Source: Escherichia coli
GTDB lineage: Bacteria; Pseudomonadota; Gammaproteobacteria; Enterobacterales; Enterobacteriaceae
Reading direction: 5' to 3' (one strand)
Assembly (NCBI RefSeq): GCF_003334355.1
Contig: NZ_QOWP01000015.1
Length of the DNA: 64,000 bases
In this document: in pieces, positions 41,325-45,199 of the stretch
How the letters are laid out: each line of letters starts with the position of its first letter
Position numbering within the stretch: the stretch's first letter is position 1
Notes under the pieces: model-generated
Database searches by the model: none
What the model was told of the DNA's origin: nothing
Seen by the model: only the letters and a program-made list of their open reading frames with translations
Made by a program: the position numbers and the translations under genes

Positions 41325-43871
41325 TCACGAAAAATATTGCTGTAATAGCGGCGTATCGTGATCCTGATTGGCAGGCGGCATGTTACCGATAGATTTTGTG
41401 CGGAACGGAATCACCTGTTCACGACCATCAACCTTCACAATCTGATAGAACTGCGGCAGGTTGAAGTTGATGAAGCTTGAGCCGTAGGTAAAACGGTCAT
41501 GCGATGACGAGTAGAAGCGACTGACGTCACGTACCAGCTCCTCTTTGCTGCCTTCGCAGTGGTGATATACCTCAACCCGGTTGCTTTCGTCGAGAATGTA
41601 GATATTAAAGCCATTCTCGTCTTGCGTTTCTTCGAAAAAGAACTGGATGATCCCTTCGCTGGCAAAGCCGTCCACCACCGCCGGTAATTTGACGTGATTG
41701 GTTTCAACCTGCACTGACAGGCCGTGCAGTTTGTTATGCGAAATCGCGCCATAAAACTCGATGGCGTTTTCCAGTTTCTGTACCGATACATTCAGGCGTT
41801 CGAAGAACAACCCCCAGGTTTGACCAGAAACGCGCAGCGCCTTGAAACGCCCGGTTTCCTGGCGGGTGCTGGAAAGACGCAATTCAATACACTCAGAAAC
41901 CAGTTGCTGCACGCGAGTACGAATTAAGCCGCGCAGATGCTGGCTATAACAGAAGACTTCCACGCTATCTGGCGGTGCGGCGTCCTGATGCATTTTGCCG
42001 AGAATAGTTTTCAGGGCTTCGATCATCGATTGCTCGCCGTTGAAGTGCAGCGTACGCACTTCGTTCCACGAGTTGCGGTACAGCAGGTCAACGCTACCTA
42101 CCAGGCAATTTTGATTCTCGCCAAAGCTGAAGACATCCAGCTTACGGAAATCGAAATGCACCACCTGATTGCGGAACGCCGCTGTCGGGTCATATTCCAG
42201 GTTAACGATAATCGCCAGATGGCGGATCTCACACGGGCTGTAGAGCGCCTTCGGTGTCGGTGCAGGTAAGCGCAGCGGGAAATGGTGCGACACGTCGGCG
42301 ACCATCTCCTGCAACTTAGGCAAATCGACAATGCCGTTACCTTTAATATACAAACGGGTGCGCGAGGTCAGCAGGCCGTTAAACCATGCCCACGCCACCA
42401 GTTTATTCAGGTAACGGTTATATTCCAGCGGCTGATGGCTGATGATCGACTCAATATTTGGCGCGCGGTTATACAGATACCAACCTGAACGGTTAGCCCG
42501 GCCCGGCGGCACATAAATAAAGGTCAGATTCGGTTCCGAGAGATCGGGTGAAATCTGCGGGTTTACCAGCGTCACTTTACCTGGTAATGCTTCAAACGCG
42601 GCATACAGCTTACGCGTCAGCACGCCGATATCCTGCGGACTGGCGGAGACGCTAAGGTTATTGCGACGCGCAAAGCGGATCAGATTACGGTAGCTCTGCA
42701 TCATCGCGTCGAGCAACTCGTTGTGCGCCTCACGCACCTGATCAATCTTCCAGTTAGCGCGGTTATCGAGCATTGCCAGACGAGCTTCGTCCCAACCCCA
42801 CTCGCTCACTAACTGGCTCAACACTGCGCGACGCCAGCCTACGCAGGCGCGTTCACGGCTGAGCTTTTCGCACACTTTTAAATAGAAGCAGCGACGTACT
42901 AAATCCAGACGGGTAAAATCTTCAATCGCCGTCAGGTATTCAGTAACACGCTCCAGCATCATGCAGTATGGATCGAGACCAAACGATACAATCTCGCCGT
43001 CGTGCAAACGCTGTTTGATATCTTTCGCCAGCAGACGTGGGTTCGGGTATTCCCAGGAATAGGCTTCCAGCAGCAGTGTTTTCAGTACCGCTTTGTATGG
43101 GGAATCGATACTCTTGTAGAGCTGCCAAAGGCTGGCACCAAAGTACTCTTCAGCAGAAAGCGAGCTTAAGCCACCGAGATCCAGCCATTCATTTGGCGTC
43201 AGCACGCCCTGCGCGTAAAGCGTCATCACATAGTCGTCGTAATGCTCTTCTTCGTCGCACGGCACCATATTCCACAGAATACGCTTACCGGCGAGACGCA
43301 CGGCGGTACGATAAAATTCGTCAAGCAGCAGTATATGCTGGGTGGAGCCACAATCTTCGCCCCCCAGGCTGCCGCTTTCATTATGACGGAAGCGGTTTTC
43401 ATCAATCAGGAAGAAGCTGACTTCCACACCCAGCGAGGCGGCCCAGTTTTCCAGCAGGCTACATTTACGTTGTAGCAATTGGCGCTCTTCGCTATCGAGC
43501 CAGGATTGATGACAGACCCAGATATCCAGGTCAGAGGAACAACTTTGCCCTACGGACGAGGTGCTGCCCATGGTGTATACACCAGTAATTGGAAGCTCAC
43601 CTTTCGGCGGATCCTGTACTGACATTCCACGATACAGTTCAAGCTCGTTCAGGTAGTGGCGTTGAGTTTCATCAGGCGTGTAAAGGCAAATGCCTTTGGG
43701 AACGTTACCATCAAGGTAACCCGGCATTAGCGGATGGTGATAGTGCAACAATGTCGGCAGTAGACTGTAGACCTGTTGGAATGCAGGCCCCATAGCAGCA
43801 AGCGCGCGATCCACACGCAATTGATTTATGGCATCCAGTCTCTGTTTCAGAGTCTCAATATAGAGGTACAA
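41325..43871 (-). CDS. cyaA: Adenylate cyclase CyaA (class I)
   Basis: 848-aa ORF recognised as CyaA; first codon is TTG (rc of caa at 43869-43871), the known non-ATG start of cyaA. Confidence 0.95.
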
Positions 43872-44026
43872 GACGTATCGCCTGATTTGCTACCCGTCAT
43901 GACTGTGATTCCGCCAACATCAACGGTAACACGCGGCATTCGGGATATTTCGTATGTCAAAGGTAACCGTTACCACTTTTCGCGCCTGGTTTTTTTAGTT
44001 TCACGACGAAAAAATGGTCTAAAACG

Positions 44027-44044
44027 TGATCAATTTAACACCTT
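44027..44044. promoter_or_regulatory. Candidate CRP site in cyaA promoter/leader
   Basis: cGTGAtcaattTAACAc, partial match to TGTGA-N6-TCACA in the cyaA-hemC divergent region. Confidence 0.35.
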
Positions 44045-44257
44045 GCTGATTGACCGTAAAGAAAGATGCGCTACATACAAGTGTAGCACCGTTTATTCTC
44101 TGTAAATTCCTTATTACAACGGCGTGAAACGCCTGTCAGGATCCACTGCCAGACCTCATTTTACGGTTTGCGCAGGCGTCTACGTTTCACCACAACACTG
44201 ACATCACTCTGGCAAGGATGTTAGGATGGACCACGGATGATAATGACGGTAACAAGC

Positions 44258-45199
44258 ATGTTAGACAATGTTTTAAGAATTGCCACACGCCAAAGCCCAC
44301 TTGCACTCTGGCAGGCACACTATGTCAAAGACAAGTTGATGGCGAGCCATCCGGGCCTGGTCGTTGAACTGGTACCGATGGTGACGCGCGGCGATGTGAT
44401 TCTTGATACGCCGCTGGCGAAAGTAGGCGGAAAAGGCTTATTTGTAAAAGAGCTGGAAGTCGCGCTCCTCGAAAATCGCGCCGATATCGCCGTACACTCA
44501 ATGAAAGATGTGCCGGTTGAATTCCCGCAAGGTCTGGGACTGGTCACTATTTGTGAGCGTGAAGATCCTCGCGATGCCTTTGTGTCCAATAACTATGACA
44601 GTCTGGATGCGTTACCGGCAGGCAGTATCGTCGGGACGTCCAGTTTACGTCGCCAGTGCCAACTGGCTGAACGCCGCCCGGATCTGATTATCCGCTCCCT
44701 GCGCGGCAACGTCGGCACTCGCCTGAGCAAACTAGATAACGGCGAATACGATGCCATCATTCTTGCCGTAGCCGGACTAAAACGTTTAGGTCTGGAGTCC
44801 CGCATTCGCGCCGCGTTGCCACCCGAGATTTCTCTTCCGGCGGTAGGGCAAGGTGCGGTGGGTATTGAATGCCGCCTTGATGATGCACGCACTCGCGAGC
44901 TGCTTGCCGCGCTGAATCACCACGAAACTGCACTGCGCGTTACCGCAGAACGCGCCATGAATACCCGTCTCGAAGGCGGATGTCAGGTGCCAATTGGTAG
45001 CTACGCCGAGCTTATTGATGGTGAAATCTGGCTGCGTGCGCTGGTCGGCGCGCCGGACGGTTCGCAGATTATTCGCGGTGAACGCCGCGGTGCGCCGCAA
45101 AATGCCGAACAAATGGGGATTTCGCTGGCAGAAGAGCTACTGAATAACGGCGCGCGCGAGATCCTCGCTGAAGTCTATAACGGAGACGCCCCGGCATGA
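44258..45199 (+). CDS. hemC: Porphobilinogen deaminase (hydroxymethylbilane synthase) HemC
   Basis: Recognised HemC; start set at [19 protein letters not shown] (313 aa); in-frame ATGs at 44237 and 44243 give a 320-aa alternative. Confidence 0.92.

Follow-up and report, generated by a model that had tools for sequence, protein, structure and literature searches.

A conserved palindrome upstream of the main cyaA promoter of Escherichia coli, possibly part of a minor upstream promoter

As the gene of adenylate cyclase, cyaA sets the cellular level of cyclic AMP (cAMP) and hence the whole regulon of the cAMP receptor protein CRP, and each layer of its control is physiologically relevant. Its control region is well studied, and the TTG initiation codon as well as the CRP operator on the main promoter P2 were already known. 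cyaA is repressed by CRP in Escherichia coli and CRP is bound over the -10 hexamer in Yersinia pestis (PMC3050693), a crp mutant of Yersinia shows cyaA increased 5.3-fold (PMC4376681), and cyaA/hemC is among the top-ranked cross-species CRP predictions (PMC1794230). A 64-kb stretch of E. coli DNA (64,000 nucleotides of contig NZ_QOWP01000015.1, called the window in the following) carries this known system itself, with the identical locus and site and nothing that differs from the cAMP-CRP repression of cya P2 in E. coli, Salmonella and Yersinia. Between cyaA and the divergent gene hemC it also carries the palindrome GCTACATACAAGTGTAGC, a small conserved dyad in a classical promoter region and the sole feature flagged in an earlier note on this DNA that lacks an assigned function. 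With a probability of roughly 40%, we consider the palindrome to be promoter-upstream DNA whose left arm belongs to a weak tandem upstream promoter within the classical cyaA control region, a reading that comes from comparative sequence analysis.

As the earlier note had claimed, a perfect inverted repeat of two 6-nt arms (GCTACA-N6-TGTAGC) is present about 200 bp upstream of the cyaA start, namely 199-216 nt upstream of the TTG; it spans -45 to -62 of the P2 start, with its centre at -53.5 (Table 1). On the cyaA-sense strand the palindrome grows to 8 pairs (44068-44089) via T.G and G-C, with a fold of -11.1 kcal/mol (z = -3.0). By itself it is not statistically unusual: perfect 6+6 inverted repeats with a loop of 3-10 nt number 181 in the 64 kb (2.8 per kb), 0.8 are expected in the 386-bp cyaA-hemC spacer (43872-44257), and 50% of dinucleotide-shuffled spacers hold at least one. 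CRP cores with two mismatches are not enriched in the window either, with 15 found and 25 expected. Palindrome and CRP site rise above chance because they are conserved.

The cyaA 5' regions of 80 Enterobacteriaceae species were fetched, of which the upstream regions of 75 were aligned. Near-invariance in these 75 species is seen for a block from about 44120 to 44005, in which the palindrome lies together with both P2 hexamers (-35 and -10) and the CRP site; the remaining spacer and most of the leader are only 10-40% conserved. Within the block, the palindrome core TGCTA...GTAG(C/T)GCA is conserved in the 75 species and invariant across 48 distinct sequences; within E. coli, 501 bases around these features are matched at 93.6-100% identity in all 5426 complete genomes. 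Conservation extends across the Enterobacteriaceae to some more distant Enterobacterales, and the palindrome decays outside the Enterobacteriaceae in the loci L086, L090, L092 and L104. The distant set comprised 11 further loci outside the Enterobacteriaceae, reached through mostly truncated fragments of CyaA homologues, and about 100 metagenome loci of Enterobacterales chosen by a P2-core pattern of the non-Enterobacteriaceae type, which itself contains the CRP site; an earlier metagenome pattern, a variant with A before TGTTAAATT, had zero matches. For statistics across lineages, 34 lineage clusters were given equal weights, with CTTTAC, which does not vary within the P2 -35 block, as the anchor of the alignment.

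The putative promoter would rest on the left arm and loop of the palindrome, which on the cyaA strand may form an element of the extended -10 type, TGcTACACT (TGCTACACT; TG at 44088-44087, hexamer at 44085-44080), with a predicted start at about 44072-44074, some 48 nt upstream of P2 and within the right arm. The pattern of variation among the 48 distinct Enterobacteriaceae sequences points to such an element: invariant or nearly so in TGCTACAC-T are T14, G15, T17, A18, A20 and T23, so that the TG, -12T, -11A, -9A and -7T of the putative -10 are spared, and -10 (C/A/G) and -8 (C/A) vary, which matches the positions that matter for -10 recognition by sigma-70 and sigma-S. A C at -13, as present in TG-C-TACACT, is typical of sigma-S-type promoters. 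The homologous hexamer is TAAACT with TG (TGcTAAACT) in the largest group, TACAAT (gcGCTACAAT) in a Serratia-like group, TACATT (TGcTACATT) in L083 and TAGGAT in L115/L158, and L104/L172 carry a perfect TGtTATAAT at the homologous site with the palindrome lost. An improved hexamer, TATAAT or TACAAT, thus goes along with loss of the palindrome in some lineages.

The enrichment across lineages is specific for position and strand. TAnnnT peaks exactly at the offset of this hexamer, in 21% plus 12% of the 34 clusters, and reaches at most 6% at other upstream offsets; TGnTAnnnT occurs within the 45 nt upstream in 33% of the clusters on the cyaA strand, the values being 1% for the other strand and 0-7% for control segments. 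At shifted offsets, L175 carries GGTGCTATACT and L183/L194 carry GGTGCTATATT, which might be the behaviour of a self-contained promoter module. Most genera have a distance of 18 nt between the arms GCTA...TAGC; it amounts to 17 nt in Kluyvera and to 19 nt in several lineages of Enterobacter, Atlantibacter and others, a variation that is tolerable for adjacent independent elements. The right arm would then serve both as the start region of the putative promoter and as the DNA that directly precedes the P2 -35 hexamer, and the perfect 6+6 symmetry in E. coli would be a side effect of two conserved elements lying next to each other, perhaps strengthened by a preference for dyad symmetry there. 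If the palindrome does hold the -10 element of a secondary promoter that is insensitive to occlusion by CRP, this promoter would provide the basal cyaA transcription when P2 is repressed. The literature of the 1980s has extra weak cya promoters, P1 and P1', upstream of P2, and the putative promoter would probably be P1. As a separate observation, E. coli SCPM-O-B-8794 has a C-to-T exchange at the homologue of 44086 (GGTGTTACACT), which is -13 of the putative extended -10 and turns a C-G pair of the palindrome into U.G.

Several points weigh against an upstream promoter. The transcription start tables of PMC3415461 and PMC4782308 are without an entry for the locus and hence give no start at about 44073, and the documented starts are only P2 in E. 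coli and one start in Yersinia. A convincing -35 hexamer was not found for the putative promoter, the TTTACA in front of it being only 15 nt upstream. TGnTAnnnT alone is expected by chance about 0.75 times in the spacer, according to our estimate. Two further features are left unexplained by a promoter: the right arm GTAG(C/T)GCA is as conserved as the left arm and complementary to it, and dyad symmetry is enriched at the same position in lineages with unrelated arms.

The dyads that recur at this position are ACCAGA/TCTGGT in L175, GCAATT/AATTGC in Photorhabdus (L087), ACAAT/ATTGT in L089, and GGAGT/ACTCC against TGGGG/CCCCA in L118/L160, and lineages of group D combine the old right arm with a new left partner (TTGCGC-GTA-GTGCAA). 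The dyad centres cluster 17-19 nt upstream of the CTTTAC anchor. In comparison with shuffles, a 33-nt segment just upstream of the -35 block folds with a mean z of -1.08 and 42% of the clusters below -1.5, as opposed to mean z values of -0.33 to +0.25 and 3-12% of the clusters in four control segments of the same loci; without the GCTA..TAGC family, the signal is weaker but persists (mean z = -0.77, 7 of 25 clusters). This recurring dyad symmetry keeps alive both a terminator or insulator hairpin and an operator. It appears rather unlikely that this dyad, which keeps its place about 17-19 bp in front of the P2 -35 hexamer while its arms differ between lineages of Enterobacterales, is either a selected nucleic-acid structure, such as a small insulator terminator or a DNA hairpin which shields or tunes the promoter, or the operator of an uncharacterised cyaA regulator. 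A terminator or operator at this place would constitute an unrecognised input to cAMP homeostasis.

A terminator acting as insulator or attenuator, which we regard as unlikely, would form the cyaA-sense RNA hairpin GUGCUACA-CUUGUA-UGUAGCGC followed by AUCUUUCUUU, stop transcripts from upstream and shield P2 from read-through and occlusion. A consensus scan flags the palindrome as terminator-like, in line with the fold given above, and its stem of 8 pairs (4 G-C, 1 G.U) with the tail AUCUUUCUUU passes a simple scan, but is weak. With the change of C70 to T, found in 11 of the 48 distinct sequences, and with T88.G69, the bases can still pair on the cyaA strand alone, as G.U; the loop length varies freely, the folding enrichment upstream of the -35 block is still seen when the GCTA..TAGC family is left out, and in group D a new left arm pairs with the old right arm, all of which would suit an RNA stem. 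On the other hand, covariation within the Enterobacteriaceae palindromes is not significant: the pairs mostly never vary or simply break, two inner pairs being broken in about 20% and the outermost pair in about 23% of the distinct sequences, and although 90.9% of the cells in a pairing count are paired, only 2 are compensatory, which 33 of 500 shuffles equal. Group A, a large one, has a weak hairpin (-3.4 kcal/mol in L099), the dyad stands 8-18 nt from the U-rich tract in several lineages, and it is absent or displaced in several. An advantage of the cyaA-sense strand (-5.75 vs -4.05 kcal/mol, p = 4e-4) is not significant after control for composition (z = -1.07 vs -0.78, p = 0.08). No 3' end at the U-tract, as an intrinsic terminator would produce, is found in the Term-seq and Rho tables of PMC7815308, which are empty for MG1655 3,990,900-3,991,099. 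No upstream transcript is documented; a transcript to be stopped would come, for example, from a conserved promoter-like site, CTAACA-16-TATCAT (44264-44237), which is located upstream on the cyaA strand and overlaps the hemC start.

Equally doubtful is an operator for a dimeric transcription factor, centred at -53.5 of P2, which would activate or repress P2, the putative upstream promoter and/or hemC. In the earlier note, a protein binding site had been offered as one explanation of the palindrome, and in its favour both arms are conserved (core GCTA...TAGC) around a variable spacer, the excess of symmetry is seen on both strands, regulators typically occupy such a place in front of a -35 hexamer, and the cyaA-hemC spacer draws several factors in genome-wide studies, namely GalR, PhoB weakly and FlhDC by systematic evolution of ligands by exponential enrichment (SELEX). 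However, the arm spacing is not fixed as in the operator of a dimer, but shifts by one base either way in at least 3 independent genera, which rigid dimers rarely tolerate, the conservation is not mirror-symmetric (G15 is invariant and its partner C/T; C19 varies and G29 does not), and the dyads of other lineages have unrelated arms (ACCAGA, GCAATT, GGAGT) that a conserved factor could not recognise. No known factor maps there: among the few factors checked (DnaA, CRP, GalR, PhoB, FlhDC), no motif and no peak from chromatin immunoprecipitation (ChIP) or SELEX is centred on the palindrome, and the GalR, PhoB and FlhDC signals are located elsewhere, at 43969, 44125 and about 43877. A scan for DnaA boxes (TTWTNCACA, at most 1 mismatch), as proposed in the earlier note, gave none in the spacer and a window-wide count equal to the chance expectation, and, apart from the P2 operator, no conserved CRP core is present in the spacer; another CRP-like core, at 43904-43919 of the leader, has two mismatches and is not conserved.

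That the palindrome has no function of its own, its symmetry being due to chance and its bases being conserved as the upstream contact region of a constrained P2, is less likely still. Half of such spacers would contain a 6+6 palindrome by chance, neither a 3' end, a 5' end nor a factor has been mapped to it, no significant covariation is seen, and it decays in the four loci outside the Enterobacteriaceae mentioned above. Against this, 20 bases are near-invariant across 75 species while neighbouring spacer bases vary, and the extended -10 motif and the dyad symmetry are enriched at a specific position as compared with control segments.

The reading of the palindrome as an RNA hairpin in the cyaA leader, as suggested in the earlier note, fails for the main transcript, as the palindrome is upstream of the start at 44025 and thus outside that transcript, and it matches no Rfam family. 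The earlier note would have discounted a palindrome that is outside any transcript and not conserved; the palindrome is outside the main transcript, but it is conserved. A scan of 43500-44500 against Rfam at a permissive E-value gave only two chance matches, to eukaryotic families. DNA looping with a second copy of the repeat inside cyaA (GCTACA-TTTACGT-TGTAGC, 43458-43476, 611 bp away; 2 matches as compared with 0.18 expected in the window) was rejected and the copy treated as chance, as the synonymous positions on which its arms depend carry other bases in nearly every other species, even within Escherichia, which gives no evidence for a looping pair.

Table 1. Coordinates of the features of the cyaA-hemC region in the window
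Feature	Position	Strand	Basis
cyaA coding sequence (class I adenylate cyclase, 848 aa/codons)	43871 to 41325	-	open reading frame and translation; RefSeq annotation
TTG initiation codon of cyaA (reverse complement of CAA)	43869..43871	-	sequence; RefSeq same start
Translation-initiation region AUCAGGCGAUACGUC, weak AGG Shine-Dalgarno-like element, just 5' of UUG	43872..43888	-	columns ~100% conserved, 75 species
GalR operator GTGGTAACGGTTACC, palindrome GGTAAC-G-GTTACC, ~+57 of P2, cyaA leader	43962..43976	.	repeat search; GalR ChIP-chip peak
CRP operator AGGTGTTAAATTGATCACGTTT (22-mer, core TGTTA-N6-TCACG), centre ~-7.5 of P2	44022..44043	.	conservation, literature
P2 transcription start, G; 154-nt 5' untranslated region	44025	-	oligonucleotide JW10390, cloning of the cyaA 5' untranslated region (PMC7815308 supplement)
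P2 -10 hexamer TAAATT, 7 nt upstream of start	44032..44037	-	invariant; inferred by sequence
P2 -35 hexamer TTTACG, 17-nt spacer, T-rich CATCTTTC in front	44055..44060	-	inferred by sequence
Palindrome GCTACATACAAGTGTAGC, GCTACA-N6-TGTAGC, perfect 6-nt arms, 6-nt spacer	44070..44087	.	inverted-repeat search, conserved core
Putative extended -10 TGcTACACT (TGCTACACT)	44080..44088	-	inferred; conservation pattern, cross-lineage enrichment
Second conserved block GGAATTTACA (+ strand TGTAAATTCC), TAAATT -10-like hexamer toward hemC	44101..44110	.	alignment
Promoter-like CTGACA-18-TAGGAT in front of hemC	44198-44227		consensus scan
hemC start codon, divergent gene	44258..44260	+	RefSeq annotation

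The start of P2 at a G follows from the oligonucleotide JW10390, which was used for cloning the cyaA 5' untranslated region and consists of a constant vector tail and the gene-specific part GTTTTAGACCATTTTTTCGTCG, opening with GTTTTAGACC (PMC7815308 supplement). Since the gene-specific part begins there and the start sites of that work come from a published map (Thomason et al. 2015), we infer that the start used was the G at 44025. In Yersinia pseudotuberculosis, cyaA has a single start with an untranslated region of 133 nt (PMC4376681 supplement). The P2 -35 block CTTTACGGTCAA is invariant in all loci. Positions in MG1655 (U00096.3) are given by 3,991,153 + (43871 - window position), a map anchored on two published coordinates, the GalR peak at 3,991,055, which falls to 43962-43976, and the PhoB motif at 3,990,899, which falls to 44112-44129.

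The CRP-like half-site pair which the earlier note had seen near the palindrome, cGTGAtcaattTAACAc at 44025-44042, is real and is the already known CRP operator, and the 22-mer at 44022-44043 is the cya CRP site of the classical compilations. Its core TGTTA-AATTGA-TCACG (44025-44040, centre 44032.5) has 2 mismatches to TGTGA-N6-TCACA. The operator is invariant in the 75 Enterobacteriaceae species and present in about 100 further Enterobacterales loci, of which the metagenome ones were retrieved by a pattern that contains the site. Its position, overlapping the P2 -10 hexamer and the start point, suits repression: cAMP-CRP bound at about -7.5 would occlude RNA polymerase at P2 and provide a negative feedback on cAMP synthesis. 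The operator includes a GATC site for Dam methylation (44028-44031, -4 to -7 of P2), which lies between the start and the -10 hexamer and shares the invariance of the operator.

As stated in the earlier note, the cyaA frame begins with TTG, which is also the RefSeq start and is found in all of the 75 full-length Enterobacteriaceae loci. The more distant L083, L084 and L087-L092 have it as well, and the gene call of L085 opens at a GTG one codon upstream, directly in front of this TTG. The open reading frame has no upstream in-frame start, the first methionine is codon 27, and the 26 preceding residues are kept as protein through synonymous changes, as in a gene initiated at UUG. The 17 bases 5' of the TTG are invariant in the 75 species, as opposed to the poorly conserved rest of the leader. 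UUG is established as limiting cyaA expression, reportedly through the work of Reddy et al. in 1985, and the quantitative effect of UUG as compared with AUG on cyaA was the subject of work of the 1980s. A structured P2 leader that sequesters the UUG was considered and rejected, the 184-nt fold being unremarkable (z = -0.78).

An expression-limiting role of the UUG fits published Rho-dependent termination in the early cyaA open reading frame. Adams et al. found Term-seq 3' ends 78 nt and about 193 nt inside it (PMC7815308), which at MG1655 3,991,231 and 3,991,346 correspond to about 43794 and about 43679 of the window. Rho-dependent read-through was observed in a fusion that comprises the cyaA 5' untranslated region and open reading frame and was gone in a fusion of the 5' untranslated region only, and such events, Rho-dependent premature termination, were ascribed to regulated or poor translation initiation (PMC7815308). 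The conserved UUG behind a weak Shine-Dalgarno-like element keeps the synthesis of adenylate cyclase low and the early open reading frame open to Rho-dependent termination.

Besides CRP, other factors address the spacer. A GalR ChIP-chip peak at hemC/cyaA (MG1655 3991055) with the motif GTGGTAACGGTTACC has been validated by ChIP followed by quantitative PCR (PMC5110547); the site is partly conserved in Enterobacteriaceae and tighter than the palindrome at 44070-44087, and 43922-43930 holds a related half-site, AACGGTAAC. For PhoB, a weak ChIP-seq site, TTTCACGCCGTTGTAATA (44112-44129), lies in the hemC/cyaA spacer at about -90 to -105 of P2 and shows no clear effect on the RNA of either gene (PMC10294691); together with ATTTACA (44101-44107), it forms three TGTNA-like repeats with an 11-bp period. 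A FlhDC SELEX peak lies near the cyaA start codon, at about 43877. A TyrR box (TGTAAA-N6-TTTACA, in E. coli TGTAAA-N6-aTTACA) at 44101-44118 was discarded as a good match in E. coli only, its right half not being conserved.

Towards hemC, the block GGAATTTACA reads on the + strand GTGTAAATTCC....TACGG in most Enterobacteriaceae, and its TAAATT is about 150 nt upstream of the hemC start codon. The segment 44237-44266, with the hemC start codon and 21 nt in front of it, is 100% conserved and exceeds the conservation of the hemC coding sequence; on the cyaA-sense strand it holds the promoter-like CTAACA-16-TATCAT. Distant Enterobacterales retain the element TATCAT/ATGATA, with 9 or 15 nt between it and the ATG of hemC; it could serve as the -10 hexamer of hemC, as a divergent promoter, or in both roles. 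No small conserved open reading frame was found in the cyaA-hemC spacer. Inside cyaA, residue 142 (43446-43448) lies in LLENW in the window, as compared with LLESW in all 74 other species examined, including Escherichia albertii; LLESW is also present in another Escherichia species and another E. coli strain, so that a Ser-to-Asn substitution of the strain lineage is seen in the CyaA of the window.

Whichever reading of the palindrome holds, the expected effect is modest in a system that is already well understood. With intrinsic terminators that act as insulators immediately upstream of a promoter, the cyaA dyad shares a stem-loop with a T-rich tract behind it, which passes into the P2 -35 region; it differs in that its stem is short and half G-C, its U-tract is interrupted, a 3' end is lacking and no co-oriented gene lies upstream, hemC being divergent. 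Among GalR operators of the OE/OI type (GTGnAAnCGnTTnCAC), GTGGTAACGGTTACC in the same spacer is the GalR-bound member, whereas the palindrome at 44070-44087 has no resemblance to the GalR consensus, and GalR binds at about +57 and not at -53. Tandem promoters whose upstream member has an extended -10 (TGnTATAAT), as P1/P2 of gal and other promoter pairs switched by CRP, resemble cyaA in that its coding strand carries TGcTACACT some 48 bp in front of the main start. In gal, however, only 5 bp separate the two starts and CRP switches from one to the other, while in cyaA CRP would be bound about 41 bp downstream of the putative start, and no -35 hexamer accompanies it. In its translation, cyaA is like other cases of UUG-limited expression with Rho-dependent termination, with UUG in all loci examined and 3' ends at +78 and about +193 of the open reading frame.

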